From an uncultured Planctomycetota bacterium (GTDB lineage Bacteria > Planctomycetota > Planctomycetia > Isosphaerales > Isosphaeraceae), in NCBI GenBank assembly GCA_963823665.1, contig CAWGMQ010000008.1:1120001-1184000 (forward strand): a stretch of 64,000 bases of DNA. The letters run 5' to 3'. The notes under the pieces are model-generated. The model was not told where the DNA came from, did not search any database, and saw only the letters and a program-made list of their open reading frames with translations. Position numbers and translations under genes: made by a program. Shown piece after piece: positions 3,661-33,355 of the stretch (its first letter is position 1; every line of letters starts with the position of its first letter).

Positions 3661-4254
3661 TCAGCGATCCAGGTTCTTTCGCAGCGATTTGAGCCCGCGG
3701 TGGAGCATTCCTGCGACCGCCGACTTGGTTGTGCCGAGCTCGAGCGCGATCTCGGCCAGCGGCCGCCCTTGCAAGTGATGAAGCTCGATCGCGCGGCGCT
3801 GACCGTCCGGCAGCGTCGCGAGTGATTCGGCCATCCTGAGCAATTCTTCCTGCCTGATCGCTTGCCGGCTGGGAGACGACTGCTCGGCAGCCAGCCACTG
3901 TTCGACGCGAGATGCCGATTGGTCGAGCGCCCGGTCGAGAGACCACTCGCGGCGAAAGTCGCGTTTGTGGGCAGTCAGCTTGCGGAGCACGTCCGCGAGA
4001 TTGTGGGAGAGGATCGAACGCAGCCATGCGGCGACCTCCGGGGCCGTCCGCGTCGGCCGCCGTTCCTCGAGCATGCCCTGGTGAGCTTCGAGCAGTGTTT
4101 GTTGAACGACGCCGGAGAGATCGACCTTGTCGCGCAGCCGCGGTGCGACCTCCAGGCGGGCAAGCAGATCCAGATAGGCGCGGAACCGCTCGAGCTGCTC
4201 CGGCCCGAGCGGCCCCTCCGCCAGTTCCTCGACGATTCGCGCTCTAGTCGTCAT
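3661..4254 (-). CDS. ECF sigma-70 factor (planctomycete kinase-associated type)
   Basis: Region 2 (FRAYLDLLAR..VDLSGVVQQTLLEAH..AAWLRSIL) and region 4 (LATLPDGQRRAIELHHLQGRPLAEIA..AVAGMLHRGLKSLR). ATG at 4254. Ends 15 bp before the kinase start. Confidence 0.88.
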   Translation of the reverse strand: MTTRARIVEELAEGPLGPEQLERFRAYLDLLARLEVAPRLRDKVDLSGVVQQTLLEAHQGMLEERRPTRTAPEVAAWLRSILSHNLADVLRKLTAHKRDFRREWSLDRALDQSASRVEQWLAAEQSSPSRQAIRQEELLRMAESLATLPDGQRRAIELHHLQGRPLAEIALELGTTKSAVAGMLHRGLKSLRKNLDR

Positions 4255-4294
4255 GAAGATCATTCTATCCAAGTGCTGCGGTTCGCGCGGCGGA

Positions 4295-6264
4295 TCAAAT
4301 CCCGGTCTTGGCAGAAGCCGGGGGCTCTGGCGCCGGGTTTGACGCGGCCTCCGGAGCGGCCTTTGTGATGATCGACCGCCACTCGGACATCGCGAGAGTC
4401 GGTTTGCCCTGTTCCTCGAGCAGGAACGCCAGCAGCATCCGCGCCGTTCGCTCACTGGAGCGATCGGTGCCGCCTTTCGCGGGCAGCGAGATCTGAGCAC
4501 GAAGCGAGCTTTCGACTGCCGCCAGACGGCCGCTTCGCAGGCGCAAGCGGCGTAGGCACGGCCGATCCACCAGTCTCGCATGCCGGGAATCTGCGACTCG
4601 AGGAACTCGGGCGCCAGGCTTCGAGCAGCCAGCTCAACCCGTCGTGCGTAGGCTTCCGCGGCCTTGGCGTCGTCGCCGCTTCCGTCGAGCGCGGTTGCTC
4701 TGATCTCGACGGCCGCGGGCGCATCCTCGATCTTCTGGCCCGGCGGCAACGGATAGGTAACAAGCGCCCTGAGCACGGCGTTTGCCTCTGACCTGGCCTC
4801 CTGATCCTGGCCCACCTGGCGCAGCAGTCGCGCCAGTTGTGCTCGAAGCGAGAGTGCGTTCGGGTCAAGCGGCTTGCCGTCGCCGGCGTTGTGGAGCGCG
4901 GCGCGGAGGTCGGTCACGAAGTCGGTGAGCAGCAGCTTGCCGCAAAGCGCTTTGACCTTCTCATCGCTGGTCGTCTTCGCGACGTGACGGACGATCGGCT
5001 CCAGAAAGCGGCCCTGGTCGTATAGAAAACGATAGGCTTTCGCGATTTCACTTGGTTTGCCTGAGGCAAAGCCGGCTATCGCCGCTTCGGCCTTCCGCTG
5101 GCGAGCGGCTGAGAGCATCTCCAGACGCCCCACCATCACACGTACGATCTTCCTGGGCGCGGGCTCGATGTTCATCGGGATGCAGTCGTCCGTCCACGAT
5201 TGCGGCAAGACAAACAGCACGCGAATTCCCTCGGTCTGGAAATAGCTGCTCTGCCAGGTGTTGACCATCGCCCGCGCCTCCTTGCTGAAAAGGCCACTGC
5301 CGGCAAGCCGCGCCGCCAGGTCGTCGCCGATCTTCCTGGTAAACTCCGCCAGAGGCATGGCTTTATCCATCGTCGGGATCACGCCGCTTGTGCTTTCCCC
5401 GGGCCGCATTTCAGCGCGGTAGGTGTAAGCGCCGCGGCCTCCTTCAACTCGCAAGACGAAGACGTCGCGCACGCCTTCGCTCACATCGACCTGAGGGTCG
5501 AGAGTCAGCGTACCGTCGCCGCTCTCCTCGATGCGCAGCGGCAGCCTCGCGGCGCCGAGCCCGCGGTAGAACAGGAACTTCTCGTATTCCTCAGCCGGCT
5601 TGGCCCGAGCGGCGTCGACCGTCTTGACGAACGCAGCATCAACCTCGCGGGCATGATTCCAGAGCGCGTCCGTGCTGGTCTGCGGCAGCATGCTGTTGAT
5701 TTCAGACGCCGTACCGCGCTGCTTGGTGCCGTTAGCGGGCATCGCGGACCTGGGAACGACTTCAGCAAACCAGCAGATACGCCCCCCTGCGAGCTTTCCC
5801 GCTTGCTCGGCCTGCGTGGCGAGACTCGGGACCACCAGCGCGGCCTGGGGATACCACTGGGTCCAGATCCCTTGGGGAAACCCGACTCCGACACGCACCT
5901 TCTGCTTTTCCTTGGTATAGAAATAGATGACCGGCGTTTCGCCCTTCAGGAACATCTGCGGCAGCTTGAGCTGATCGCGGCTCCGGCCGTGCACAAACGC
6001 GGGCAGAGCGTGCTCTTCGTGATACATCCCGTCCAGGGCCGTGCCATCTGCGCTGCTCATGCCCAGGAACGTGCCCCATTCGTGCACGACCAGGTCGCTG
6101 GTCTTCGCCAACGACGGCGTCTGCTTTTCATCTGGGTGCGGCAGCAGCGTTACACCCCGTACGCCGACAGAAACACAAATGCTTGCTGCAGCGGTTGTTA
6201 CGACAAGGAACACCGAACGCAGCAGCGCTCGCCCACATGAACTCGCAAATCGCATCGATCTCAT
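4295..6264 (-). CDS. Exported/membrane-anchored conserved hypothetical protein (frameshift near 4530)
   Basis: N-terminal hydrophobic segment and motifs VHEWGTF, ETPVIYFY, EKFLFYRGLG, KEARAMVNTW. The protein-like C-terminus continues in frame 4295..4570. Confidence 0.7.
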
Positions 6265-10874: not shown

Positions 10875-11303
10875 ATGGCTGGACGGAAGGGCCTGGCGAT
10901 CACGGAGCGGCAGTTCGAGGTGCTTCGGGTGCTCTGGGGGCACGGGCCGCAGACGGTTCGCGGGTTGATGGTGCTTCTTCCCCGGGGAGACAGGCAGCCG
11001 TACACCACGGTGCTGGGGCTGTTGCAGGGGATGGAGAAGGCCGGGCTGGTCGATCATGAGAAAGACGGAATCACGCATCGCTATCGGCCTGTTGTCTCGC
11101 GTGAGGAAGGCACCGGCAACTTGCTCTCTGACTTCCTGGCGCGGTTCTTCCATGGATCGGCCGAGCAGTTGGTGCTTGGGCTGGTCGATGCGCAGGAACT
11201 GGCTCCTGATGACCTGCGGGCGATCGAGGCCAAGCTGGCGGATCAAGACTCGCGAGCAAATGGGACCAGGACTGCGCCTGCGAAAAAGAGGAAGGCGCGA
11301 TGA
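10875..11303 (+). CDS. BlaI/MecI/CopY family repressor
   Basis: ITERQFEVLRVLW..YTTVLGLLQGMEKAGLV..RYRPVVSRE..FFHGSAEQLVLGL. Confidence 0.92.
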   Translation: MAGRKGLAITERQFEVLRVLWGHGPQTVRGLMVLLPRGDRQPYTTVLGLLQGMEKAGLVDHEKDGITHRYRPVVSREEGTGNLLSDFLARFFHGSAEQLVLGLVDAQELAPDDLRAIEAKLADQDSRANGTRTAPAKKRKAR

Positions 11304-13951
11304 CACAATTCACTGACGACTGGGTCATTCCCTGGCTTGCGCTGCTTTGTGAATGGTCGATTCGCTGGGGCGTTCTGCTCGCGCTTCTCGCCGCGTGGTT
11401 CGCGGTGCATCCTCCGCGACGGGCCGCTGCACGCCATGTTCTCTGCTGGGCTGCTCTCGTGGCGGGGTTGCTGATTCCGGTTGCGCCGCGGTGGGGAGGA
11501 CTCCCGGTACCGAGGTGGAACATTGGAGCGCGGGAGGCAAGCGAGCCACCGATCCGAACTGTGAGCCTGCCGCAGATGCGGCAGGTTCAATCCGCTCGGC
11601 CCGCGATCGCGTCACAGGCATCTGATTTGTCGAACACTCCATTGCCGGTTGCTTCCGTTCATGCGACGTCAGTCTCGTTCAGTGGATTTCAGCTTGCGGC
11701 ACTGGCGATGGCTTCGGCGTGGGCATTCGGCGTCCTGATGTTGCTCATCCGTCTGGCCGGCGGCTGGCTGATGCTGGTGAGATTTAGCCGCGGGGCGGCC
11801 GAGATCGACGGGGAGTGTGACGCAATCTTCCTTGAGTGCACGGCAGCGATCGGGCTCTCTCGAGCCGTCCGGCTCGTCGCTCATCGTGCGATCGGCTCGC
11901 CGGTGGCATTTGGCTGCCTGGGTCCGCGAATCCTCGTACCGGCAGATTGGGCTAGCTGGCCTGAGGCACAGCGTCGCGCTTGTCTGCTCCATGAGCTGAC
12001 ACACCTCAAACGGCGGGATGACTGGTCCAAGCTGGCTCAGGAGCTGATTTCGGTTTTCTTCTTCTTCCATCCCCTGGTGCGCTGGCTGATCGCACGGCTC
12101 GACCGCGAACGCGAGTTGCTCTGCGACGAGGCGGTGGTTGCGCTGGGTACGGAGCCGGCGGGCTATGCTCGCATGCTGCTGGAAATGGCCAGACGGCCTG
12201 AACGAATCCTGGCGCTTCCCTCACGCGTTCCTTCCGCATTAATTCCCTTTGTAGGTCGCCGAACCGTCGCGATTCGCATCTCGCGACTGCTGGAGGATGA
12301 TATGTCGAATACGCTCTCTCGATCGTCGTTGTGTCGGTCGCTAATCCTGGGAGTTCTGGCGGCCATTGTTTCGCTCGCTGTGACGGGCGTTCGAATTCGC
12401 GCCGTGGAGCCGCAGGCGAGTGGGTCAATCGAAACGGGGGTTCTCACCCGCAAGATCGAGGGCCTGATCCTCGACCCCGATGGCAAACCGGCAGCCGACG
12501 CCACCGTGGTGGCGTGGATCGCCTATGCCGAGAAGAAGAGTCGCTCCGTGCTACGCAGCGATCAGAGCGGCAATTTCAGCTATTCGTTCCCCGATGGACC
12601 CGGCGTGATTCACTTCATTGCCTACAAGGAAGGTCTCGCACCCGGATTCCGGCAACAACCGATCGAAATGCTACACCAGGGCGATCGCCGTGACGGCAAA
12701 CTCGGTAGGATCAGCCGGTTCACAGCGATCGTCGTGGACAACGAGGGCAAGCCATTTCGTGATTCCAAGATCCGCGTCGAAGGGGTCGCGCATGTCAGTT
12801 CGAAGACGGACGGATCTCAGACCACGATCAGCTCGTCGTACGACTGGATCAGGCGCGAGATTCTCGCCGGAAGCCCGCTCGAGGGACTCCTTGAGACGAC
12901 AACCAACGCGGACGGCTCGTTCGTCTTCACGATGCTCGAGGAAGATTGCGGTCTCATGCTCGGCGCCGTCTCCGCTGACGGCCGCGGGTTTCGGATCAGG
13001 TCCAGGCGCCACTCGACGAATTCCGTCCACCGAGGAATTGAGCAAGAAGGATTCGTCATCGCGGAAGCCGGCGAAAAAGCTGAACTCGTCGCAATCCCTG
13101 AAGCTCGCGTCTCGGGCCGCGTCGTGACTTCACTCCCAGGCGTGCGCGTGGCGGGCCTGAAGGTGAGCTTCCAGTCCCCACACGTTTATCCCGGAATGAC
13201 CAATGTTTCGCCCGAGCACGTGTTGACCGACGCGGACGGACGGTTCAGCTTCACCGGTCTGAACGAAGGCTCGGTCAACATCTTCGTGGGGGGAAAGGGC
13301 GAAGAGGATTGGACCTATCGGGCAGCCAAGGACGTTCTTCTTACACCCGGTGAGACCTCACGCGTGACGATCGAGCTGATCCGAGGCGTCGTCGTCGAGG
13401 GAGCCGTCGTCGTCAAGGAGACCAATCAGCCGGCCCGAGGATTCACCGTCGGGGTCATCGGGCCGCTCCGTCCGAGCACGGGCGCGGCGACGACGAGGGT
13501 CAAGACCGACGGGCGCGGCCGCTACCGCGTGCGCCTGCCATCCGGCGAGACCGAGTTCTACGTCCCCGGTCCGGTGTTCGGAAAGATATCGCGCCTCACC
13601 ATTCCCATCCCCGAGGATCGCGCGACCTTCGAGATGCCCGTCATCTCCGTGGAGACCGACCCGACGATCCACGCAAAGGTGCTCGATGCCGATGGCCAGC
13701 CCTTCCCGGGTGCAACGGTTCTTGGCATCGACAAGAACGACGTGCTCGAGCCGTTTCTGGGCGCCGAGTACGTGACAGACGTTCGCGGCCGGTTCGTCCT
13801 GCCGAGTGAAGTGTACAAGCGAGCGGCAACCGGCAACCAAACCCGGCTCCGCATCCGCCTGCCCGACGGCGCCGAGCAAACCGCCATCATCTCCTTCGAA
13901 CCGGACAACTCGGTAGTTGTCCGGCTTGACCGAAGTCGCCAAGATCTCTAG
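11300..13951 (+). CDS. BlaR1-like M56 peptidase with carboxypeptidase-regulatory-like Ig repeats
   Basis: TM segments, HELTHLKRRD, FFFHPLVRW, ERELLCDE. C-terminal G.V.D.DG.P..GA.V / TDADGRF repeats. ATGA overlap with the BlaI gene. Confidence 0.9.
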   Translation: MTQFTDDWVIPWLALLCEWSIRWGVLLALLAAWFAVHPPRRAAARHVLCWAALVAGLLIPVAPRWGGLPVPRWNIGAREASEPPIRTVSLPQMRQVQSARPAIASQASDLSNTPLPVASVHATSVSFSGFQLAALAMASAWAFGVLMLLIRLAGGWLMLVRFSRGAAEIDGECDAIFLECTAAIGLSRAVRLVAHRAIGSPVAFGCLGPRILVPADWASWPEAQRRACLLHELTHLKRRDDWSKLAQELISVFFFFHPLVRWLIARLDRERELLCDEAVVALGTEPAGYARMLLEMARRPERILALPSRVPSALIPFVGRRTVAIRISRLLEDDMSNTLSRSSLCRSLILGVLAAIVSLAVTGVRIRAVEPQASGSIETGVLTRKIEGLILDPDGKPAADATVVAWIAYAEKKSRSVLRSDQSGNFSYSFPDGPGVIHFIAYKEGLAPGFRQQPIEMLHQGDRRDGKLGRISRFTAIVVDNEGKPFRDSKIRVEGVAHVSSKTDGSQTTISSSYDWIRREILAGSPLEGLLETTTNADGSFVFTMLEEDCGLMLGAVSADGRGFRIRSRRHSTNSVHRGIEQEGFVIAEAGEKAELVAIPEARVSGRVVTSLPGVRVAGLKVSFQSPHVYPGMTNVSPEHVLTDADGRFSFTGLNEGSVNIFVGGKGEEDWTYRAAKDVLLTPGETSRVTIELIRGVVVEGAVVVKETNQPARGFTVGVIGPLRPSTGAATTRVKTDGRGRYRVRLPSGETEFYVPGPVFGKISRLTIPIPEDRATFEMPVISVETDPTIHAKVLDADGQPFPGATVLGIDKNDVLEPFLGAEYVTDVRGRFVLPSEVYKRAATGNQTRLRIRLPDGAEQTAIISFEPDNSVVVRLDRSRQDL

Positions 13952-14091: not shown

Positions 14092-14805
14092 GTGGCTACG
14101 GTGTCAACCGGCTCGGTGCTGCTGGGGGATGAAAACGGGATGCCACCGCTTGAGGCGGGCGACCGGCTGACTCGCGCCGAGTTCGAGCGGCGGTACCTTG
14201 CAGCGCCGCAGGTAAAGAAGGCGGAGCTGCTCGAAGGGGTCGTCTACATGCCCTCACCGGTCCGGCTGCGCCGCCACGGACGCCCACACGCCCACTTGCT
14301 TGCCTGGCTGGTGCTGTACGAGGCGGGCACCATAGACGTATACGTGGGAGATAACGCCAGTACGCGCCTGGACCTGGACAACGAGCCCCAGCCGGACGCG
14401 ATCCTGCTTCTGGACCCGCTCAAGGGCGGTCAGGCTCGCATCGGGCCTGACGACTACGTCGAAGGCGCACCCGAGCTCGTCGCCGAGATCGCGTCGAGCA
14501 GCGTCAGCTATGATCTCGACGTGAAATTGAAGGTCTATCGCCGAAGCGGTGTGAAGGAGTACATCGTCTGGCGCGTCCTGGATCGCCAGATCGACTGGTT
14601 CTGCCTCAGAGACGGACAGTACGAACGAATGTCGCTGGATGATGCAGGCCTCTACAAGAGTGAGGTCTTTCCCGGCCTGTGGCTCGACGCGGCGGCCTTG
14701 GTGCAAGGCGATATCAAGACCGTCGTCGCCGCGCTCAATCGCGGTCTGGAAAGCGTCGAGCACGCCGGCTTCCTCGCCCGTTTGCAGTCACCCACCGGCG
14801 AGTGA
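14092..14805 (+). CDS. Uma2 family endonuclease
   Basis: KAELLEGVVYMPSP, EPQPD, GAPELVAEIA, KLKVYRRSGVKEYIVW. Confidence 0.92.
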   Translation: MATVSTGSVLLGDENGMPPLEAGDRLTRAEFERRYLAAPQVKKAELLEGVVYMPSPVRLRRHGRPHAHLLAWLVLYEAGTIDVYVGDNASTRLDLDNEPQPDAILLLDPLKGGQARIGPDDYVEGAPELVAEIASSSVSYDLDVKLKVYRRSGVKEYIVWRVLDRQIDWFCLRDGQYERMSLDDAGLYKSEVFPGLWLDAAALVQGDIKTVVAALNRGLESVEHAGFLARLQSPTGE

Positions 14806-14819
14806 CCGTCTCGAGTATC

Positions 14820-15930
14820 ATGCGCGAGCTCACTGCCCAGAACGCCGCCGAGTATCTCCGGGATTCCGGGCGAGTTCCTGGTGGCTTATCGATCAAGGTC
14901 CGTGAGCTGACTGGCGGCGTGTCCAATATCGTGCTCGCGCGGATATCTCCGGGCGCCCGCCGATCGTGATCAAACAATGCCGCGAGCGGCTGCGCGTGGC
15001 CATGGAATGGCACGCACGGCTGGAACGCATCTGGACCGAGCAGGCGGCGATGGAGCGGCTGGGTGCCATTCTGCCCGCGGGCACTGTTCCGCTCGTCGTA
15101 TTCGAAGACCGACCGAATTACCTTTTCGCCATGACATGCGCCCCAGACGATGCGGTCACCTGGAAGTCGCAGTTGATGGGCGGAACGCTTGATCCGGAAA
15201 TCGCCGTTCGATTGGGGATCATCCTGGCCATGATCCACGACAAGGCTCCGGGGCAACCGTCACTCACGGCGCAACTTTCGCGGAGCGAAAGGCGACAATG
15301 GACAATCCACGACACGGCTGCGGCGGGACCGTCACTCACGGGCATCCTCGCCGACACAAGCCTCTTCGACGAGCTTCGGGTCGACCCTTACTATCGGACC
15401 ATCGCGCGGGCGCATCGCCGATTTGAAACCACAGATTGATGCACTGATCGCCGCGATGGATCGGCCGGTTAAGGAGCGGACACTGGTGCTCGGGCGACTT
15501 CAGCCCCAAGAACATCCTGGTGCATCAACACGGGCTCATTTTGCTTGATTTCGAATGTGCCCATGCGGGCGACGCGGCATTCGACCTGGGGTTCTTTCTC
15601 ACGCATCTTCTGCTCAAGCGAATTCGTGCCGAGGCGATCGACCACCGACTGGCGCCGGAGATATACGGGCTCGCGACCACGTTCCTGGACACGTACCTGG
15701 ATCGACGCGTCATGGACGCAACGGCGCGCGCCGATTTGACGCATCGCAGCCATCGTGCATACGGCGGCTTGCTGCCTGGCCCGCGTGGATGGCAAGAGCC
15801 CAGTGGAATATCTCGACGTAGCGGGCCCAGGCCACGGCGCGTGCATTCGCCCGGGAGTCTCTTCGCACCGAGCCACGGACATGGGATGCTTTACTCGAGC
15901 AGCTCGACGAGGCAATCAAGAGGACGAACG
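14820..15930 (+). CDS. APH / methylthioribose-kinase-like phosphotransferase (multiple frameshifts; 3' end approximate)
   Basis: ELTGGVSNIV, IKQ.RERLRVAMEW, FDELRVDPYY, GDFSPKNILV (read across a frameshift), LLDFECAHAGDAAFDLGFFLTHL, LARVDGKSPVEYL, spread over ORFs 14966..15439, 15520.. and 15755.. Confidence 0.75.
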
Positions 15931-15931
15931 C

Positions 15932-17280
<1,349 letters not shown>

Positions 17281-17318
17281 CTCAGCCTGCTGTTCGGCAC
17301 TACTGGGCGATGAACGAC

Positions 17319-17470: not shown

Positions 17471-19294
17471 ATGGACGCGAGTGCATCCGCTGGTTACCTC
17501 CGCGACATGCACACCCTGTTTGACGCGGGCACGGTCAGCGGATTAACCGACCGGCAGCTCTTGCAGCGGTTCACGGGCGAGCGAGGCGCATCGGGTGACG
17601 CGGCATTTGAAGCGCTCGTGCTGCGGCACGGGCCGATGGTCATGCGGGTTTGCCGCAACGCGCTCGGGCAGGAACAAGCCGATCTCCACGACGCATTTCA
17701 GGCGACGTTTCTCGTGCTCGTTCGAAAGTGCAATTCGATTCGCAGGCTGGACTCGGTGGGAAGCTGGCTTTTCGGGGTGGCGACGCGGGTGGCTCGCCGC
17801 GCTCGAGTGGAAGCGGCTCGGCGACGCTCGGCCGAACTCCGGGGTGGGCTGCGAATCGCGGTGACCGCCGATCGTGGGGGTGATTCTACCGACATCCACG
17901 ACCTCGGGCCGCTGTTACAGGCTGAGGTCGAGCGGCTGCCGGAGCGGCTTCGGGCCGTGGTGATCTTGTGTTACTGGGAGGGGCTCACGCACGAGCAAGC
18001 GGCGGCGCGGCTCGGTTGCCCGCTGGGCACGGTGCGCAGCCGGGTGGCGCGGGCTCGTGGGTTGCTCCAACGCCGGCTTTCGCGGCGAGGACTCGAACCG
18101 GTGGCCGGAGTGATGCTCGCGGTCTTTGACTCGCCGGCTTTCTTGAAGGCGACTGCACTCGAGATTCCCGGCTCACTCGTCAACTCGACTGTCCAGATCG
18201 GCACGCAGGCCGCGACGGGCGCCTCGCTTGCACAGCTTACGTCACCTTTCATTGCGTCTCTGGTCCGAAACATTATCGGGAGCATGTTCATGACGAACGT
18301 GAAGACGATCGCTGCGTGTCTGTTGTTGATTGGTGCGGGTGCTTATGGTCTCACCCTTGCCGCACCCCAGGCCCAGCGCACCTCGCGGCCGAGACCGACA
18401 TCAGATGGCCCGCGGCGCCCCGCCGCCGGGAAATCCAAAGCTCAGCCCGCGCTGGAAGCTCTCGGCGACTATGTGGTTGAGCCTCCCGACACCTTGCTGA
18501 TCGAAGTCCTGGAAGCGCTGTCGGGACGGCCCATCTCGGGCGAGCGCCTGGTGCGGCCGGACGGCAAGATCTCGCTTGGATTCTACGGGGAGATCTATGT
18601 TGCAGGCCTGACGCTGGCGGAAATCAAAGAGAAGGTCATTCTTCACCTCAAACAATTCATCGGCCCACAAAAACTGGGGTTGGTCGCTCCACCATCGGAG
18701 GTCCGTGAGGGCGAGTTCAATTCCAGGATGGAAGCGGGGAAGCCCATCGCCCCGCGGGATTCGAACCTAGTGTTCGTTGAATTGGCGAAGTCCAACAGCA
18801 AGTTTTATTACCTTCAAGGGGCGTTTGTCATACCCGGCCGCGTGCCGGTGACGGGACGGGAGCGGATTCTCGACGCCGTCAACAAGGCGGGAGGTCTCGC
18901 TCCCGAGGCAGACAGCAATCAGGTCTTCCTTTACCGCGTGGGCTCGAACGAAGGGCGCCTCAAGACACTGAAAATCGACATCGATCAGATCACCTTGGGC
19001 GATGACCTGTCGACGAACTACCAGCTCATCCCCGGTGACCGGTTGGTCGTCCGACGGCGAGCAGGCAGCCTTCCGGAAACGGAAGAGAAGCTGGCGGAGC
19101 CGTCGGAGGAGGTCGCACCGCAGCCGTCTCGTCCTGACGGCGATTCCGACCGGCCGCAAGCGACGGACGACTCAGCGAGCAAAGCCGCGCCGGGCGGTGT
19201 CATCGAAACCCTGCACCGATTTGACAAGCGATTGGGCGAAGTCGAGCGCAAGCTCGGTTTGATTCTCGAGGCACTTGGATCCACGCGGCGTTAA
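17471..19294 (+). CDS. ECF sigma factor - TM - polysaccharide export (Wza-like Poly_export+SLBB) fusion, copy 1
   Basis: Sigma: [72 protein letters not shown]. Then [53 protein letters not shown]. Confidence 0.88.
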   Translation: MDASASAGYLRDMHTLFDAGTVSGLTDRQLLQRFTGERGASGDAAFEALVLRHGPMVMRVCRNALGQEQADLHDAFQATFLVLVRKCNSIRRLDSVGSWLFGVATRVARRARVEAARRRSAELRGGLRIAVTADRGGDSTDIHDLGPLLQAEVERLPERLRAVVILCYWEGLTHEQAAARLGCPLGTVRSRVARARGLLQRRLSRRGLEPVAGVMLAVFDSPAFLKATALEIPGSLVNSTVQIGTQAATGASLAQLTSPFIASLVRNIIGSMFMTNVKTIAACLLLIGAGAYGLTLAAPQAQRTSRPRPTSDGPRRPAAGKSKAQPALEALGDYVVEPPDTLLIEVLEALSGRPISGERLVRPDGKISLGFYGEIYVAGLTLAEIKEKVILHLKQFIGPQKLGLVAPPSEVREGEFNSRMEAGKPIAPRDSNLVFVELAKSNSKFYYLQGAFVIPGRVPVTGRERILDAVNKAGGLAPEADSNQVFLYRVGSNEGRLKTLKIDIDQITLGDDLSTNYQLIPGDRLVVRRRAGSLPETEEKLAEPSEEVAPQPSRPDGDSDRPQATDDSASKAAPGGVIETLHRFDKRLGEVERKLGLILEALGSTRR

Positions 19295-19325
19295 CCACGG
19301 GCGAAGCGCGGAGAAGGAGCGAGCG

Positions 19326-21272
19326 ATGCCGGGAACTGCACCAACTGACTACCTCCGCGACATGCACACGCTCTTCGACGCGGGCACAGTCAGCGGACTA
19401 ACCGACCGCCAGCTCTTGCAGCGGTTCACGGGCGAGCGAGGCCCGTCGGCTGAGGCGGCCTTTGAAGCGCTCGTGCTCCGGCATGGGCCGATGGTCATGC
19501 GGGTTTGCCGCAACGCATTGGGACAGGAGCAGGCGGAAATCCAGGATGCGTTCCAGGCGACGTTTCTCGTGCTCGTCCGAAAGTGCAAGTCGATTCGCCG
19601 GCTGGACTCGGTGGGGAGCTGGCTCTTCGGGGTGGCGACGCGGGTGGCTCGCCGCGCTCGGGTGGAAGCGGCCCGGCGGCGCTCGGCCGAACTTCAGGGC
19701 GGGCTGCGAATCGCGGCGACCGCTGATCGTGGGAGTGATTGCACCGACATCCAGGATCTCGGGCCGCTGTTACAGGCCGAGGTCGAGCGGCTGCCGGAAC
19801 GCCTTCGAGCCGTGGTGATTTTGTGCTACTGGGAGGGCCTCACGCACGAGCAAGCGGCGGCGCGGCTGGGCTGCCCACTGGGTACGGTGCGCAGCCGGGT
19901 GGCGCGTGCTCGCGGTCTGCTTCATCGCCGGCTCTCGCGGCAGGGACTCGAGCCGGTGGCCGGCGTGATGCTCGCGGCGATTGACTCGCCGGCGTTCTTG
20001 AAGGCGGGAGCTTTGGAGATTCCCGGCTCACTCGTCAGCTCGACTGTCCTGATCGCGAAGCAGGCGGCGGCTGGGGCCTCGCTCGCACAGCTCACGTCAC
20101 CTTCCATTGCGTCTCTAGTCCAAAAAGTCATTGGGAGCATGTTCATGACGAAAGTGAAGTCGATCGTTGCGTGTTTCTTGTTGATCGGTGCGGGTGCTTA
20201 TGGGCTCACGCTGGCGGCGCCCCAGGCCCAGCAGCGCACCCGGAGGGCGGCACCGGCGTCCGACGCCTCGCGGCGGCCGGCAGCCGTGAAATCGAAGGCT
20301 CAGCCCCCGCTTCGCGTGATGAGCGAGTACGTTGTCGAGCCACCAGACCTCCTGTTGGTTGAGGTGCTGGAAGCGCTGCCGGGTCGGCCCATTTCGGGCG
20401 AGCGCCTGGTGCGGCCGGACGGCAAGATCTCACTCGGGTTTTACGGCGATGTGTACGTCGCTGGTCTGAGCGTACCGCAAGTCAAGGAGAAGATCATTCT
20501 GCATCTCAGAAAATACCTGCCGGATTCGCAACTGGGCCTGGTTGTCGAGGATGAGGCAGAAGAGGAGGCGCCTGCGGTGGCGGCGCCATCCGAGCGAACG
20601 AACCCTTTTGAGCAGAGCCCTCCGCCACAGTCGAAATCCGAAAAAAGGAAATCCACGGATCCGACTCCGCCCGTCCCGTCCAGCGAGCGCAAGACCCGCA
20701 TCGAACCGAAGGATAGCGACCGCGTCTTCGTCGATGTCACGGCCTACAACAGCAAGGTTTACTATACTCAGGGGGAGGTATTCACGACCGGACGCCTTCC
20801 CATCACGGGACGAGAGAGAGTACTCGACGCGATCGATTTTGCCGGCGGCTTGACGCCGGATGCCGACCACGAGCAAGTCTTCCTCTACAGACAGCCTGCC
20901 GACGGAGGTCCGGTACACACCTTGAAGATCGACATCGACGAGATCATGCTCGGGGATGACGTTTCGACCAATTATCAGCTCGATCCCGGAGACCGGCTGG
21001 TCGTTCGGAGACGTGAGAATCCCGTTCGTGAACAGCAAGGATCCGCGCCGCGACCATCGACGACCACTTCGCGGCCGATCGGCGAACAGCTCCACTTCAA
21101 CCGCGAGACAGATACCTTGGACAAACCGGCGGGGCCAGAGCCGAGACGACTGGATAGCCGTGGAGAGAACCCTGCGTTACTTCGGCTCGAGAGACGAATG
21201 ACGGATCTCGAGCAGAAGCTCGATCGGAAGCTGGACCTGATCCTGGAGGCGATTGGGAAACCGGCGCGTTAG
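19326..21272 (+). CDS. ECF sigma - TM - Wza-like fusion, copy 2
   Basis: Same architecture as copy 1. AAGGAG SD before ATG 19326. Confidence 0.88.
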
Positions 21273-21347
21273 GTTGTCTTTCGCGGGTCACTGCGGAAGT
21301 TGGGTTGCTTGAGGGTCAGCTTTGCGACGCGGCAGAATGAGAAAATC

Positions 21348-21369
21348 GTCAGGCTAAAGCCTGACCTAC
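21348..21369. repeat. GTAG-type REP palindrome, same family as 17401-17422
   Basis: GTCAGGCTAAAGCCTGACCTAC, identical to the 17401 copy, 12 bp before the copy-3 start. Confidence 0.8.
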
Positions 21370-21381
21370 TGGGAACTCCTG

Positions 21382-23205
21382 ATGAACGCCAGCGCATCCG
21401 GCGGCTACCTCCGCGACATGCACACGCTTTTCGATGGGGGCACGGTTAGCGGATTATCGGACCGGCAGCTCTTGCAGCGGTTCACGGGCGAGCAAGGCGC
21501 ATCGGCTGAGGCGGCCTTTGAAGCGCTCGTGCTGCGGCACGGGCCGATGGTGATGCGGGTTTGCCGCAATGCACTGGGGCAGGAGCAGGCGGAAATCCAT
21601 GATGCGTTCCAGGCGACTTTTCTCGTGCTCGTTCGAAAGTGCAAGTCGATTCGGCGGCTAGACTCGGTGGGGAGCTGGCTCTTCGGGGTCGCGACGCGTG
21701 TGGCTCGCCGCGCTCGGGTGGAAGCGGCTCGGCGGCGCTCGGCCGAACTCCGGGGTGGGCTGCGCATCGCGGCAACTGCTGAACATAGGAGTGATCATCC
21801 CTCCGACATCCAGGATCTCGGGCCGCTGTTACAGGCTGAGGTCGAGCGGCTGCCGGACCGGCTTCGGGCCGTCGTGATACTGTGCTACTGGGAGGGACTC
21901 ACGCACGAGCAAGCGGCGGCGCGGCTGGGCTGCCCGCTGGGGACGGTGCGCAGCCGGGTGGCGCGGGCTCGGGGCGTGCTCCATCGCCGGCTTTCGCGGC
22001 GGGGACTCGAGCCGGTGGCCGGTGTGATGCTTGCGGCGTTTGAGTCGCCGGCCTTTTTGAAGGCGGGTGCGCTGGAGATTCCCGCTGCGCTCGTCAACTC
22101 GACCGTCCAGATCGCCGAGCAGGCGGCCGGCGGGTCGCTCGCTCAACTCGCCTCTCCGTCGATCATCGCCCTCGTGCGGAAAGTCATCGGGAGCATGTTC
22201 ATGGCAAAATTGAGAACGGTTGCTTTTTCCATGTTGCTGATCGGGGCAGGGGCATATGGGCTCACGCTGGCCGTGGCCCAGATCGAGGGCATGCGCAGGA
22301 GCCGGCGCGATCCCGCATTCATGTTTACGTCCGCGAACTCGAAAGCTCAGCCGCCGTGGAAGGTGATCGATGAATACGTGGTCGATCCGCCTGACCTCAT
22401 ACTCGTCGAGCTGCTCGAAGGCCTTCCCGGCCGCCCAATTTCGGGCGAGCGGCTGGTGCGACCCGACGGCAAGATCTCTCTGGGGTGGTACGGCGATGTC
22501 TACGTTGCCGGTCTCACCGTGTTGCAAATCAAGGAAAAGATCGTCCTTCACCTTCGCAAGTTCCTGCACGACGAACAACTGGGCCTGATCAAGGCGGACG
22601 ATGAGACCGGAGAGTTGATGACAGATGCCAACGGTGAGCCCATCCTCCTCGATCCCAAGGAATCCGACCGCGTGTTTGTGGATGTGACAGCCTATAACAG
22701 CAAGAACTACTACGTGCAGGGAGAATTCGCGACGCTGGGAAAACTGCCGATCACGGGACAGGAGCGAGTGCTCGACGCCATCAGTTATTCGAACGGCCTG
22801 ACCTCAAGCGCTGACCACGACCAAGTCTTCCTGTACCGACAGCCTGCCGATGGCGGGCCGGCGCAAACCTTGAAGATCGATGTTGACCAGATCATGCTCG
22901 GTGACGACCTTTCCACCAACTATCAGCTTCTACCCGGCGACAGGCTGGTGGCGCGGACTCGCGGGGGCGACACGCGTGAACCTGAACACCCGGCGCCGCG
23001 AAAATCGCCCCTCGAATCGAAGGCCGCGCCTGACTCTGACCCGATACGGCGTTCAGACACTTCAGGAAAACCAGCAACACCGGACGCCGGTAGACCGCCA
23101 AGAGGTTCAGAGAGCCCTCCGCTCCTGCGTCTCGAGAAGCGCGTCGCGGACATGGAGCGAAAGCTAGACCAGATTCTCGAGTCGCTGCGTGCCCAGGCTC
23201 ATTGA
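21382..23205 (+). CDS. ECF sigma - TM - Wza-like fusion, copy 3
   Basis: Same architecture, with C-terminal [17 protein letters not shown]. Confidence 0.88.
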
Positions 23206-23250
23206 CCCAGAACGTGTGCAGCAGACGGAACTGAATCGTTTGACGGGAAT

Positions 23251-24219
23251 ATGCCGATGGCCAAGCTCCGGACGATTGCAGCCTGTTTCGTGGTTGTGGC
23301 CGCGTATTCGTACGGCGTGCGCTCCGCGTCGCCCCAAGACGAGGGCGCGAAAGCCGTATCAAAACCAACGGACGAAGCCACCGAGCGGACGAAAAGAGAC
23401 CCGCCTCCGCCATTCGCACTGCGAGATGACTATGTCGTCGAGCCGCCTGATCTGATTTTCGTGTCGCTCGAGGGAGGGCTTCCCGGAAGGCCCCTCGCCG
23501 GCGAACGCCTCGTGTGCCCCAATGGCAAGATCGCGCTGGCATGGTACGGCTACGTGGATGCCGCCGGGCTTACCGTCGTCGAGATCAAGGAGAAGATCAT
23601 CGCTCGACTCCAGAAGTTCCTACGGGACGAGCAACTCGGACTGGTCGAACTCGACGCGAGTGGCGAGCCCATCGTCGATGCCACAACCGGAAGGCCAAAA
23701 CGTATCGCTCCCAGAGACTCCAAAAAGGTCCGGGTTGAGATCACGCGATGCAACAGTAAGGTCTTCTACGTCCTGGGCGAAGTGCAGTCACCTGGGCGAT
23801 TCGCTCTGACCGGCTCAGAGAGGATACTCGACGCGATTGCCGACGCCGACGGGCCAACTCATGCCGCGAATCTCGATCGCGTCCTGCTTTATCGTGCGAA
23901 TTCTGAAGGCAAGCCCGAGTGCACCACGATCGACGTGAATCAGCTCAAACGTGGCAAGTTTCCGGCAACCAACCGTCCACTCAAGGCCGGCGACCGGTTG
24001 GTCGTCTCCCGCCGTTCGTCAGAAGCGGTGCCGATCCAGCGGGACAAATCTCGTGCTCGCCCCCAACCCGCTGTTGCCGCTGCGTCGCAAAACAAGGATG
24101 GCGAATACCAACGCGCGGGCACGGAAGACGCGTCGTTACAGCGCCTTGAGCAGCGAATGAAAGCGCTCGACCACAAACTCGACCTTGTCCTCGAGGCGAT
24201 TCGAAAGCGGGTTCGATAG
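23251..24219 (+). CDS. Sigma-less Wza-like (Poly_export+SLBB) protein with signal peptide, copy 4
   Basis: MAKLRTIAACFVVVAA signal-like N-terminus, YVVEPPD..AAGLTVVEIKEKI..VFYVLGEVQSPGRF..LKAGDRLVV, C-terminal LEQRMKALDHKLDLVLE. Confidence 0.88.
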   Translation: MPMAKLRTIAACFVVVAAYSYGVRSASPQDEGAKAVSKPTDEATERTKRDPPPPFALRDDYVVEPPDLIFVSLEGGLPGRPLAGERLVCPNGKIALAWYGYVDAAGLTVVEIKEKIIARLQKFLRDEQLGLVELDASGEPIVDATTGRPKRIAPRDSKKVRVEITRCNSKVFYVLGEVQSPGRFALTGSERILDAIADADGPTHAANLDRVLLYRANSEGKPECTTIDVNQLKRGKFPATNRPLKAGDRLVVSRRSSEAVPIQRDKSRARPQPAVAAASQNKDGEYQRAGTEDASLQRLEQRMKALDHKLDLVLEAIRKRVR

Positions 24220-27809: not shown

Positions 27810-30800
27810 ATGAGCGAGCACCTCAGCGATCATCTGAGCGGACTTGACGTCGACGTCATCCGTCACATCGACGCCGCGTGCCGCCGTTTTGAGGGCGACT
27901 GGCGTGAGGGCCGGCAACCGAGCGTCGAGGACTATCTGGTTGAGGTACCCGAAGAAGGCCGGAAGGCGGCGCGCGGTGAGCTCGAGGCGCTGCGCGCGAG
28001 CTAGAGGAGAACAAAACTCTGCCTGGCGGGCCGGTTTCGTCGGTGCACGAGGACGAGACGGTGCCGCCCCGGGCGGCTCAGACGGTGGACCTCGGATCGT
28101 CGGCGCCGCCGTCGTCTGCTCGGACACAACCGGCGCGCATCCGCTACTTTGGCGATTACGAGATTATTCGCGAGCTGGCTCGCGGCGGTATGGGTGTCGT
28201 GTTCGAGGCGCGGCAGGTGAGCCTCAACCGTAAGGTCGCGCTCAAAATGATCCTCGCGGGACAGCTTGCGGAGGAGACCGACGTCAAGCGATTCCACACC
28301 GAGGCCGAAGCGGCGGCGAACCTCGACCATCCGGGCATCGTGCCGATCTTCGAAGTTGGGCAGCACGAGAGCCAGCATTACTTTTCCATGGGATTCGTCG
28401 AAGGGCAAAGCCTCGCCGGGCGCCTGGCCGGAGGGCCACTCCCGCCGCGGCAGGCCGCGGAGCTGATCCGGCGCGTGAGCGATGCCATCGAATATGCCCA
28501 CCAACACGGTGTGATCCATCGCGACCTCAAGCCGGCCAACATCCTGCTCGACGCGCAGGGCAACCCGAGAGTCACCGACTTTGGACTGGCAAAGAAGGTC
28601 CAGGGCGATAGCGGACTCACGGGATCGGGCCAGATCATGGGAACGCCGAGCTATATGCCGCCGGAGCAGGCCGGGGGCAAGCGAGGCGACGTGGGCCCGG
28701 CTGCGGACGTGTATGCGCTCGGGGCCACGCTTTACGCCTTGTTGATTGGCCGGCCGCCGTTTCAGGCGGCCACGGCGATGGACACGGTCATCCAGGTGTT
28801 GAGCGAAGAGGCGGTCCCGCCGCGGCGGCTGAATGCGGCGATTCCGCTCGATCTGGAAACGATCTGCCTGAAATGTCTGGAAAAGGAGCCTGCGCGGCGC
28901 TACGCGAGCGCGGCGGCGCTCGGCGCGGAGCTGGGCCGGTTTCTCTCAGGCGAGCCGATCCTGGCGCGGCCGGTCGGCGCGCCGAGCGGCTGTGGCGCTG
29001 GTGCCGGCGGAATCCGGTCGTTGCCGGACTGGGTGCCTCCGTGGCGGCGCTGCTTCTGTTTGTCGCCGCGGCCGGGGCGGTTGTGGCCGTCAGGCTTGCT
29101 CATCTCCGCGATATCGCGGAGATGAAAGCGAGCGATGCGCGCAAGGCGCAGGCCCAGGCCGAGCTTGCCCACCAGGGCGAAGCGGCCCGTCGGCTCGAGG
29201 CGGAGGCGGCCGGCTATGACGCCAGCACCAAGGCCCTGGCCGCAGATCAGGCACTCGTCCAATCGTATCTCAGCCAGGCCGAGAATCTGCGCAACCTCGC
29301 GCAACCCGGCCGGCGCGACAAGGCAATCGATCTCCTCAAGCGAGCCGCGGGCTTGAAGCACGACACGGACAGTCTCGCCGCCAAGCTCGGAGCCGACACC
29401 GCCGGACGGCGGACCGCCATGGTGCAGTTCTGGCGCGACGAGCGCCCTCGATTGCGGAGCGAGGCCACGCGCTGGATTGGCGAGTCGTCGTTGAAGCTTG
29501 TATTCGACGCGCGCTTCCCCGTCGTCATGCGGTCTCCGCGCGGTGGAAATTACACCGTCGTGCCGTCTCGCGCCTGCCTGGCGACGAGCGACGATGGAAA
29601 ATGGCTGGCGTTCTACCACGTCGGATTTGAAGGAACGGATCCGACGCCCGCCAAATTCGTGGAGATCATCAAGACGGATACCGGCGAAGTGCGCCGCACG
29701 CTGAAGGTCGGCGCGCACAACACGCTCAGCCGGATGAGCGCTCTGGCCTTTGATGCGAACGATGAAGACTTGCTGGTGGCCAGGATCGAGCCTGACTTCA
29801 ACAAGCACCGGCTGGTGTGCATCGTCGAGCGATGGTCGCGCGTCTCGGGCGAGTTCAAGGGAACCACGACCTTGCCGGTTTCGGATACCGGCCCACAAGA
29901 CCTGTCGCCCGGCCCGACGGGCGGCCGGCTGGTCTTCGGTCTCGACCGGCGAGCTTTGCTATCGATACCCAGCTTGCCCGACAAGCGGTCGACGGTGTGG
30001 AACGTGACCACCGCGAAGCCGATGCGCGACTTTGACAAAGACTTTACACCGGAGGCGTTTTTCCCGGGTGGCAATCGTGTCATCGGCACGATGGGATCGG
30101 AGATCAGCATACGCGATGTGGTGACCGGCAACGTGATCAAACACTGGCCTATGCCGGATGGACTGGTCTCGATTCTGGGAAATCTGCGAACCGCGCCGCG
30201 CATGGAGATTCCCTATGCCACCCAGCCTGACGCACAAAGCCTGTGGGTCAGCCCCGACGGCTCGATCGTGGCCGTGATCGGCCAGCGTCCCAGCTCAGAG
30301 AATCGCTTGAATCACACGCAATTGCCTCGAATGATCTACCTGTTCGACGCCGAGACGACGCAGGTGCGCGTGCGCATTCCGGTCCCCGACTTCCCGTCGA
30401 GCGGTTTGCAGACCGGCCCGGCTCCGGTGCTGGCCTTTGACAGCACGAGCCGCCTGCTGGCGGTGGCGACCGGCAAGAGCCTGTCGATGTTCTCGATCCC
30501 GGAGGGCACGCTGTTGATCTCGGAGGCGACGCCGCCGATGGGCATTCCGGCTGCCAGCCCCGCGGTGGCGACGCCGGACTGGGCGTCGACGATCCCGATC
30601 GGCCTACTTTTCGCCGCAGGCGCGAGCCGGCTGTTCGCGGGCGCGCATTTGCCCGATCTAACCGGCTCATCGCGCAGCCCTTCGGCCGCCGCTCAGCTTG
30701 TCGGGCAGGGGGTACAATCCTGGGACCTGACGCTGCCCAAAGTCAGAATCGAGGACTACTCTCATGATGGGGCAGTGCGGGCGGTGAAGCTCGACGCGCG

Positions 30801-33355
30801 AACGAGAGTCATGACCTCCGCCGGTGACGATCGGACCATCCGGGTCCGCGACCGAGGGGGTCGCCTCCGTTGGTCGGTTGGGTATCCAGGGCAGGGTAGC
30901 GCGTTCTCTGGATTCGCTGCGACGGATCAGGGGCAGAAACCCTGCGGCAGCGGCGCGTTCGATCCGACGGGCGGTGCGTTCTTCACGTTTCTTCCCGACC
31001 GCGTCGACATCTGGGATTCAGCCACGGCCGAGCGGCGAGCTTCCTTCTCTTCGATCCTTGCCGTGAGCGCCGATCGCCGGTACGTGGTGGTGCCATGGGC
31101 CGAGGGCCCCGCGCCGGCGCGAGCTCAGAGTCCATGATGTGTCGAAAAACGCCACGGCCCTGTCCATCCCCTTGGAGCAACAGCCCCTGATCGAGAGATT
31201 CAACGCGTCGGGATTTCAGGGAATGACGCAGGTCTTCCCGCGGGCGTCGTTCAGTCCCGACGCCCATTTCGTGATCGTCGGTGAGCGAGCGATTCCCGGG
31301 CGGCCAACTGAAAAGCCGGTCCTCCGGATTGGCGACCTGGCGGCGGGGCGTGTTGTTGCGACGCTGCCGGGAGGGGGATACGACTGGGCAGTCGGGCCGG
31401 CGAGCAAGGTGCTCGTGATGCCAGTTGTGGAAGGCGACCACGCGGTGTTTCGCGCATATGAGCTGGCCACCGGTCGACCGATCAGTGAATTCACGAGCCC
31501 GACTGCCGGTTTCTCGCCCGCTCCTCTCAATTACCGCGAGAGTCTTTCCTCCTGGATCAGTTCGGACGATCGCAAGATGGTGGTGAGGCTCGCGAAGGGG
31601 GCCTATCCGCGACAAGAAGTGAGCTTATGCCTCTGGACGTTTGCGGACAATCAGACCATCGCGATTCCCATCGACGGCGACTGGGAGGCGAGAGCGATGC
31701 CTACCGAACAGTGGATGTATCTCAATCAAGATGCGACGCGGCTGCTCATTTCGGGATCGAAGAAAACCGGTTCGAACAGTGCGCAGCCTGTTGTCGAGCT
31801 ATGGGATCTCACCGAGCGCCGGCGGTTGATGTCGACCGCCGACGCTGGGCCCAAGCTCACGATCGGCGTGCCCAGGCTGATTTACCATCGCGGGCAGAAC
31901 GCATTCACGACGTGCCACGACCCCGCGTCAAGCCCGGAGCGCATCGGAGCCATCCTGTGGGAGACCGCGACCGGCAAGGTCATCGGCCGCTACAAGGCCG
32001 TTCTCCCGGAACAATCAGAAGATGGCGACTACCTCAAGGTGAGCTACCAGGGTCCCGAATCGCTGATCTCGCTCAAGACGCACGAAGTCCGCACGTTTTC
32101 CAAGGTACGATTTCACATGATTCTTGGCGTACCCGGGCGGCGGACCGCCGTCACGAGCCCGAGCGTGGTGATCGGGGGGTCCGGCGGTTCGTTGTTTGAT
32201 GTCACGCTGACCGATCTCGAGACCGGTCGCACGCGGGCTGTGCTGCACGATCAAGAGGTGCTCACCGGCGCCTTCACGCCGGACGGCAAGCGGCTCGCGA
32301 CGCTCTCGCGGCAAACGCCGTACGCACTGAACGTATGGGACGTCGAGACCGGCAAGGCCGTGCGCTCGGTGCCGTTGCCTAACGCCCTCTACAGCCTCCG
32401 CTCGAGCCTGGGCAGGTTTACCCAGCAGGGCACGAACGTCACCGATGTTCATTTCACACTGGATGGCAAGAAGCTCTCGCTCAATCTGAATGACCGGTTC
32501 CGCGTGCTGGAAGTCGAGAGCGGCCGGATGGTCGCGATCGACCGGCCCGGCCACCGGGCCACGATCCGCGCGGTGGATTCCAGCAGCGACGGTGCACTCG
32601 TCGTCTCGGCGGGCGACGATGCGTCTGTCTGCCTGTGGGATGGCGCCGACGGTCGCTTTCTCGCGATGCTCGAGGAAGAAAGCGAGCCGATCGCGGCGGT
32701 GAGCTTCAGCTCGGGGGCGCGGCACCTCGCGGTGCGCACGCAAAGCGGTCGTGTGCGACTCTGGAAACTGGACCGAGCGGAGGCAAGCGGGCGAATCCGT
32801 GTGAATGCAACGCCGGTGTGGAATACAACCTCGCTGGGCCCGGCCGCCGGCGCCCCGGCGACTTCGGGGCCGGTTTTTGTTGCCGAGGGAGGGCCGGTCG
32901 CGTTTGGCGTCGCGGACGGAACGATCGCTCTACGCGACACGGCGGACGGGAGCGTCAAGCGTATGCTCAAACCCGAGTCTGGGCAGACTGGTGTGACGGC
33001 CCTGAGCTTGCAGCCTGGTGGGAGCCGCCTGGCCGGGGCAGACGCAAGCGGGGTCATACGCATCTGGGACCTATCCACGGAAACACCGCCCGCGCGACTT
33101 GCCACCGAGGGAGGCGAGATCCGAGCGCTCGCGTTCGGGGGGAATACGCTTGCCGTCGCGGGCCGGTACGTCGAGCTGTGGGATGTCGACGCAGGAGTAC
33201 CGATTGTGCGGCTGGAAGCCGACGTGCGCAAGGTTTCTTGCATTGATCTTTCCGCAGATGGTCGAACCCTGGCGTGGGGAGACGATCGGAAGCTCACTTG
33301 CCGGGATGTTCAGGAGCTGCGGCGACTGATGGGGGAGATTGAGCTGGGTTGGTAG
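27810..33355 (+). CDS. Large Ser/Thr kinase with beta-propeller/WD40 C-terminus (frameshifts near 28000, 28980 and 31120)
   Basis: N-terminal [16 protein letters not shown]. Kinase [33 protein letters not shown], then WD40-like repeats in ORFs 28873..31137 and 31139..33355. Confidence 0.82.

Follow-up and report, generated by a model that had tools for sequence, protein, structure and literature searches.

The question raised by this locus is why a bacterium should join a sigma factor to a copy of a polysaccharide export protein within one gene, and what such a gene would produce. The window, that is, the whole 64,000-nt stretch analysed (assembly GCA_963823665.1, contig CAWGMQ010000008.1, positions 1,120,001 to 1,184,000), belongs to an uncultured planctomycete of the family Isosphaeraceae and carries, at 17471-24219 of its own numbering, an array of four intact open reading frames (ORFs) on the forward strand. 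Three of them, as a first-pass annotation had stated and as the ORFs and Pfam matches bear out, fuse an extracytoplasmic function (ECF) sigma factor to the Poly_export module of an outer-membrane polysaccharide export (OPX) protein, and the fourth is a sigma-less copy of that module; the genome also has a separate, resident OPX gene. The fusion is real, widespread in the Isosphaeraceae and derived from sigma factors of group ECF57, and the array as such is of minor importance; what is new is the predicted internal start, the putatively self-directed promoter and the apparently host-matched, putative bait.

Architecture and origin of the fusion genes

The four ORFs, and the domains as located in ORF3, are as follows.

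17471..19294, forward strand: ORF1 (607 aa), ECF57 sigma factor, linker, signal/transmembrane segment, OPX domains D1-D2 and coiled coil
19326..21272, forward strand: ORF2 (648 aa), architecture as ORF1 with a longer D1 insert; D1 identical to the resident OPX at 58/68 positions
21382..23205, forward strand: ORF3 (607 aa), architecture as ORF1; D1 identical to the resident OPX at 63/68 positions
23251..24219, forward strand: ORF4 (322 aa, likely start 23257), sigma-less; signal peptide, OPX D1-D2 and coiled coil
21526..21972, forward strand: sigma2-sigma4 of ORF3 with the ECF57 cysteine pair C61/C168 (Pfam, alignment)
22369..22944, forward strand: Poly_export and single SLBB of ORF3, resembling Wza D1-D2, without the outer-membrane helix (Pfam, AlphaFold2, Foldseek)
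23116..23199, forward strand: terminal coiled-coil helix of ORF3 in place of the Wza-type helix (alignment, AlphaFold2 model)

The start of ORF2 was set at the ATG following AAGGAG (19326); the ORF finder begins it at TTG 19275. Pfam matches above the curated cut-offs in ORF1-ORF3 comprise Sigma70_r2 (residues 49-116), Sigma70_r4_2 (149-197), Poly_export (about 330-403) and one SLBB_2 (about 441-560), and ORF4 matches Poly_export and SLBB_2 only. The AlphaFold2 model of ORF3 (69 sequences, pLDDT 78.9) gave Wza structures as the best Foldseek matches over D1-D2 (7xff, E 3e-11), followed by class 3 WzaB (E 4e-9), and ECF sigma factors were matched separately. The Poly_export and SLBB domains proposed earlier are thus present, but with a single SLBB, without D3 and without the Wza-type C-terminal helix. 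The terminal coiled coil proposed with them corresponds to C-terminal helix 579-606 of the model, and the proposed hydrophobic segment occurs once per fusion by hydropathy (residues about 272-300), preceded by an amphipathic helix in the model. This segment aligns to the N-terminal signal peptide of ORF4, which itself falls below the 19-residue hydrophobicity threshold.

Sequence comparisons indicate that the fusion is not an assembly artefact, since a sigma domain is present in 91 of the best 120 of 1402 export-module relatives (23 start in the linker or signal, 6 do neither; the length filter left out short lipoprotein OPX), the cultured species Aquisphaera insulae (L137) has the fusion in a single frame, and contigs of three soil sequencing runs, which may be the source sample, agree at 99-100% with the parts of the genes that they cover, and no indel is listed for them. 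Sigma4, the linker and the internal ATG (18052-18318) are crossed by one of these contigs; none covers the whole array.

The sigma part is the known planctomycete ECF57 chassis. It consists of sigma2 and sigma4 only (Pfam), and the cysteine pair, one in sigma2 and one in sigma4, that marks ECF57 in the group description (PMC7826278 supplement) is represented by C61 and C168, neither of which varies in sets of 69 and 83 sequences. The named relatives belong to the Isosphaeraceae or other Planctomycetota, except two labelled Kuenenia with a resident OPX only; the extension has one hydrophobic segment by hydropathy, against a group average of about two transmembrane helices. For chassis residues 1-295, the 16.5-Mb source genome gave at least 150 matches (150 of 331 candidates scored), some of them halves of split genes, and the cargos among 48 chassis matches or neighbouring sigmas scanned include CarboxypepD_reg, WD40, thioredoxin, HlyD, peptidase M16 and unknowns.

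The cargo, as alignments indicate, derives from the resident lipoprotein OPX of the family. The module was matched in all 121 family genomes searched, most of which encode a conserved resident lipoprotein in which a lipobox and D1 are followed by a single SLBB and by an amphipathic tail with weak alignment to the Wza pore helix; that of the source genome (G000:C4:177463) is 67% identical to the ORF3 module. At the fusion junctions the lipobox is present in 0/41 and an A-x-A-like site in 40/41, and the Wza-type C-terminal helix is replaced by a linker and coiled coil, 70-85 residues after the last SLBB. Because both outer-membrane anchors, lipobox and pore helix, are lost, the fused module cannot form a pore. 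These losses agree with the proposal of a one-component, membrane-linked regulator with a sensory rather than a transport role. The coiled coil was rejected as a cargo-specific feature, its strict pattern being found also in 2/54 other ECF57 proteins. Recent recapture of the whole module from the own OPX was likewise rejected, residents grouping apart from fusions in a quick tree, in which the fusions also evolve faster than the residents.

No adjacent wzc, wzy or glycosyltransferase gene had been noticed at the array, and none was matched by Pfam among the 26 other window proteins scanned. A search of the genome with a kinase model found a Wzc-type gene in a glycosyltransferase/exosortase locus; GNVR and Wzz models had no match in the source genome. 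Since the Wzc locus holds no OPX, the resident OPX is the likely partner of this gene. The resident OPX (L009:5839-9727, G000:C4:175-179 kb) lies apart from the Wzc locus, in a neighbourhood of two unknown exported-type proteins, a DSP-type phosphatase and a GTPase that is conserved at 19-23 of 23 loci. Further OPX-like genes of the source genome encode a D1-only membrane protein (L010:7609-8331), a short lipoprotein (L011:7488-8324) and a secreted form (L012:7147-8583) whose D1 likewise has host-specific residues.

A full-span, single-frame fusion occurs in 16 of 48 other family genomes, with two further split or partial cases; the listing for 152 genomes outside the family but within the class, with 7 candidates scored for each, contains none. 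Among 39 candidate loci, 35 hold an in-frame fusion, adjoined by a sigma-less OPX gene at 10 and by another ECF57 gene at 11. A genome of the same genus (G029) holds the same three-plus-one array, frameshifted, and elsewhere there is usually one copy; the source genome (G000) has other tandem ECF57 arrays of five and three genes with other cargos. The weight first placed on the tandem array was therefore too great, as the array is, on this comparison, a local duplication and ordinary in itself. The five-gene (L165, G000:C8:1630-1649 kb) and three-gene (L173, C8:383-392 kb) arrays each have their own -35 element (GGATAC and GGAACT, respectively).

OPX-fusion and sister-clade sigmas form one clade (46 rows, FastTree support 99). 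The sister ECF57 genes L159 and L160 (G000:C8:1264883 and C8:157148), L217 and L212 have as cargo a truncated copy of the resident membrane-fusion protein (38-49% identity); they share the internal Shine-Dalgarno (SD) sequence described below, and a sigma-less version with signal peptide was also found. Sigma-OPX fusions with extra inserted domains occur at L133:4072-6702 and L055:7131-9566, the former lying in a distant sigma clade, without SD and promoter, as an independent capture.

Signals at the junction

The junctions of 115 ECF57 frames were aligned and three were dropped (two in the wrong frame, one unaligned), which left 41 OPX fusions, 52 distant paralogs (all but one from the source genome, which supplied 51) and 19 frames of the sister clade, of which 15 carry a truncated membrane-fusion-protein cargo and 2 are OPX fusions with a frameshift. 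In the array, the signals located by this alignment are the following.

18279..18367, forward strand: ORF1 internal GGAG (18279), in-frame ATG (18290) and Sec/SPI-like signal peptide
20134..20222, forward strand: ORF2 internal GGAG (20134), ATG (20145) and signal peptide
22190..22278, forward strand: ORF3 internal GGAG (22190), ATG (22201) and signal peptide

GGAG stands 11 nt before the in-frame Met at the head of the signal peptide in 35 of the 41 fusions, against 5.8 expected under synonymous recoding, and in 18 of the 19 sister-clade frames, against 3.1 expected. The codon at this site alternates among Arg, Trp and Gly with NGG kept, and where it is Arg, the rare codon AGG is used in 15/20, the highest value among 52 Arg columns (median 3%). 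Pairing with the anti-SD is -6.6 at the fusion site versus -2.6±0.3 kcal/mol, and at 47 control positions the excess never fell below -0.85. ATG occupies the site or the next codon in 38/41 fusion junctions. Since both the signal and the ATG (44/52) lie two codons upstream in the 52 distant ECF57 genes, SD and ATG have shifted jointly between the clades; pairing there is -5.85 versus -4.38±0.30, and GGA makes up 67% of Gly codons at the site versus 9-23% at six other Gly-rich positions. Kin sequences do not count as independent, but the controls by column and by position have the same ancestry.

True starts in these bacteria show the same motif at the same distance (40/44 and 27/32). The anti-SD is canonical in all three 16S genes of kin examined (Rfam search), and no 16S gene is present in the source assembly; an apparent altered 16S tail was rejected, the match being coding DNA. 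The junction signal is unlike the lipoprotein signal of the donor OPX and so belongs to the chassis rather than to the captured gene. Sigma-less genes, namely ORF4 and the neighbours of 10/35 fusion loci, begin at the internal-start site, some keep the last linker residues of the fusion readable upstream, and they nest among the fusions in a quick tree. ORF4 is by these signs the predicted short product of the fusions, encoded on a gene of its own. It is likely, on the strength of these patterns, that each fusion gene yields two products, a tethered sigma and an internally initiated short form.

Predicted promoter and match to the host OPX

The following elements concern transcription of the array.

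17275..17303, forward strand: predicted autoregulatory ECF promoter, -35 GGATAG (17275-17280) and -10 GGCACTAC (17296-17303), overlapping the enolase stop codon
17388..17458, no strand assigned: two presumed REP-like palindromic repeats between promoter and ORF1 (repeat family D9; third copy at 21335-21370)
21152..21180, forward strand: weak promoter-motif copy inside the end of ORF2, possibly for ORF3 (loose match, outside the strict tally)

The motif GGATAG-N16-GCAYT precedes 31/35 fusions, 9/14 sister-clade genes and 0/52 distant ECF57 genes; among the 27 matches listed, distant paralogs often have a similar -10 element with other -35 hexamers that follow the sigma clusters. The strict motif is found in the window before ORF1 only (17275), displaced to -196 by the D9 repeats; the gaps between successive ORFs (31, 109 and 45 nt) suggest that the four ORFs form one operon. 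Exact copies in the source genome number four (control, four), two before genes of the clade and two inside unrelated coding frames, and totals across 46 genomes are at control level. The motif was found before none of 72 resident OPX loci (duplicates included, one mismatch allowed) and is absent from the 20-kb Wzc locus. The only clear targets of the predicted promoter would thus be the clade's own genes and not export genes, and the sigma very probably autoregulates its own gene. Such self-targeting makes sense if the gene also encodes an effector.

By identity of D1 to the resident OPX of the same genome, the own pairing has a mean rank of 3.5 of 23 (24 fusions), and rare residues of the resident are shared with the own fusion in 25/78 cases versus 129/1722. 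Over 23 genomes, D1 gave 1329 matches versus 1238±9 on permutation, an excess that stays significant when the comparison is made inside genera or with each genus represented by a single genome; for the rest of the module, tracking within genera was not significant (p 0.09). Within genera, parallel changes outnumber opposite ones by 38 to 2 in D1 (pairs overlap) and by 12 to 8 beyond it. Only D1 and its insert show tracking; D2 does not, and the excess peaks in a family-specific insert or loop just after the position aligned to Wza Y155, a residue described as contacting Wzc (PMC12881504). The link to the host export machine that the first-pass annotation proposed has thus gained support, and on balance the fused copy probably acts as a bait for that machine. 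For the membrane-fusion cargos of the sister clade, tracking is weak (mean rank 3.4 of 10 versus 5.5; 9 cargos, one resident frameshifted).

In one genome (G066), a 107-nt tract is identical between the fused module (L029:7789-9747) and the resident OPX (L067:6032-7330). To judge from this identity it is a recent gene conversion from resident to fusion, and conversion would be at least one vehicle of D1 matching. Pervasive recent conversion was not observed: four-fold sites give 0.49 for own versus 0.46 for other pairs, G066 being the exception.

Mechanism, alternatives and significance

We slightly favour the reading that each fusion gene is an autoregulated one-gene cassette, whose tethered sigma-bait and secreted decoy engage the host export machine. 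The first product would be a membrane-tethered, likely self-inhibited sigma displaying the OPX copy in the periplasm as bait, and the second a likely secreted decoy made from the predicted internal start. The linker would hold the sigma closed; the model of sigma plus linker is compact (pTM 0.84), at a root-mean-square deviation of 7-9 Å to anti-sigma-bound and 27-28 Å to polymerase-bound sigmas, in a comparison that barely covers linker helices 214-277. D1 would bind partners of the resident OPX, most likely either the periplasmic arm of a co-polymerase of the Wzc type or OPX subunits that are not assembled. Were the binding of the bait to change, the A-x-A site would become exposed to signal peptidase, by analogy with RsiV, after which an RseP-type intramembrane protease would free the sigma, by analogy with IutY. 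The freed sigma would transcribe its own gene, both products would rise, and the secreted decoy would tune or dampen export. The array would then supply three sigmas that hardly differ in specificity, their baits graded by how well each matches the host OPX, together with a gene for the decoy alone.

Several observations weigh against this reading. At the junction, 6/41 fusions lack GGAG at -11; a Ser AGY codon had to be rejected as SD evidence, three other Ser columns being also 100% AGY; and the effect of the internal SD on ribosomes may be a pause and not initiation, the Met perhaps being kept for protein reasons. AlphaFold2 can collapse two-domain sigmas whatever their state. The stretch after the signal is modelled with low confidence and is variable, unlike the conserved protective helices of RsiV, and the cut could therefore be a constitutive one. 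Gene conversion may have produced the D1 tracking as a side effect; many of the parallel changes are conservative, and with synonymous sites saturated (0.57) even in comparisons inside a genus, selection and conversion are inseparable. ORF3, the best of three, stood for the source genome in the permutation test, whose result holds without G066 and G029, and ORF1 has the most diverged D1 (47/68 to the resident OPX) with no tracking (rank 20 of 23). Wza D99/E102 lie outside the alignments, and exact-match promoter scans would miss degenerate targets.

Among the alternatives, it is unlikely that the gene makes one full-length product only, which would join the OPX octamer of the outer membrane and sense export there, and whose sigma would control exopolysaccharide genes. 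The D1-D2 fold is kept, D1 is matched to the host OPX and transport genes are not adjacent, all of which this explanation accommodates, but it leaves the internal start unexplained, and both the restriction of tracking to D1 and its insert, without D2, and the absence of the promoter motif from the resident OPX genes and the Wzc locus speak against it. Somewhat less probable again is one product that is constitutively cut, signal peptidase always releasing the OPX copy and the sigma stub being freed or degraded; GGAG would be a pause site before the membrane segment, and the whole a self-amplifying secretion cassette with redox, through the cysteine pair, as its true input. This would suit the A-x-A-like site without lipobox, the invariant C61/C168 and the lack of a conserved protective element after the site, but it sits poorly with the joint shift of SD and ATG between clades, with an SD spacing equal to that of real starts and with sigma-less genes that begin at the same site. 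Least probable is a chance capture that has no sensory meaning (Pinto and da Fonseca 2020), in which a sigma cassette, while duplicating, came to be joined to an exported gene and the copy was kept by drift and occasional conversion: the many chassis matches with unrelated cargos, the patchy distribution, the recent conversion tract and the faster evolution of the fusions are in its favour, but the fusions are in-frame across many genera with promoter, SD and D1-D2 conserved, a second capture occurred independently in a distant sigma clade (L133), and it is the chassis, and not the donor, that contributed the signals at the junction.

The cassette reading can be set beside known systems. ECF57, as described by Casas-Pastor 2021 (PMC7826278 supplement) and by Jogler 2012 as cited, shares the cysteine pair, a membrane-linked C-terminal extension and a proposed release from the membrane; the present cargo is OPX D1-D2 rather than WD40 or homeodomain-like, with one hydrophobic segment. 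The group text gives promoters as not conserved and mentions no second product, whereas a clade promoter motif and a predicted internal start are found here. Pinto and da Fonseca (PMC7671368) explain planctomycete ECF diversity by sigma duplication and gene sequestration, with conserved sigmas and extensions of many origins as here; the present capture differs in appearing old, retained and matched to the host donor, with a block of linker, ribosome-binding site, ATG and signal moving with the sigma. Their supplementary table of ECF extensions already has Poly_export and SLBB as columns, and the first-pass annotation was to that extent overstated. The same annotation had overlooked the predicted internal ribosome-binding site and start, the putatively cleavable signal peptide and the candidate autoregulatory promoter.

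Class 1 OPX (Wza) and the resident OPX share the Poly_export and SLBB fold, but the fusions lack the lipobox (typical of the class, about 78%), the outer-membrane helix (Wza_C) and D3, and are joined to a sigma. Class 3 OPX (WzaB/EpsY; Saidi 2022) are also periplasmic Poly_export-SLBB proteins without Wza_C or GfcC; they have no appreciable sequence after the last SLBB, whereas here a linker and coiled coil follow, the donor is class 1 and there is no conserved export-gene neighbourhood. No conserved neighbour of the class 3 porin type was recognised in the clusters of 38 loci, in which no dedicated model search was made. IutY of Pseudomonas putida (PMC8999054), a sigma/anti-sigma fusion whose tethered sigma is freed by proteolysis, and RsiV (PMC6066255), for which signal peptidase is the first protease, are functional analogues; the fusions have no FecR/TonB partner, and the passages concerned describe neither system with an internal start or a host-protein bait. 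No description of the fusion, of an ECF57 mechanism or of internal starts in sigma genes was found in the literature covered, which included passages of PMC8567305 and of the preprint on OPX classes (10.1101/2022.02.11.480155), and the supplements of Jogler 2012 and Wiegand 2020, which classify planctomycete ECFs, may list the architecture.

Elsewhere in the window, enolase, phosphotransferase-like and kinase-WD40 genes (14735-17280 and 28043-33355) are split across frames, likely by assembly indels. An 867-aa ORF (3661-6264, reverse strand), adjoining a Ser/Thr kinase gene, has sigma-70 region 4 at its C-terminus (810-861) as its sole Pfam match, and at 10875-13951 a BlaI-type repressor stands with a fusion of BlaR1/M56 peptidase and CarboxypepD_reg, another regulator chassis with exported cargo.

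Hundreds of ECF57 genes per genome are an unexplained hallmark of planctomycetes, for which the group descriptions cited give no anti-sigma gene, conserved promoter or characterised mechanism. A shared internal start and a self-directed promoter would explain how ECF57 works without neighbours. We tentatively extend the scheme to ECF57 genes in general, which might be one-block cassettes (promoter, self-inhibited sigma, internal ribosome-binding site, signal peptide) for a tethered sensor and a secreted effector, mainly self-regulating, the OPX and sister clade using truncated host envelope machines (OPX, membrane-fusion protein) as baits matched by conversion and selection. If true, the cell would be monitoring its envelope machines by unusual means, through a sensor copied from one of its own export proteins and kept in step with it, and such a sensor would also give a point of access to polysaccharide export in these abundant soil bacteria.

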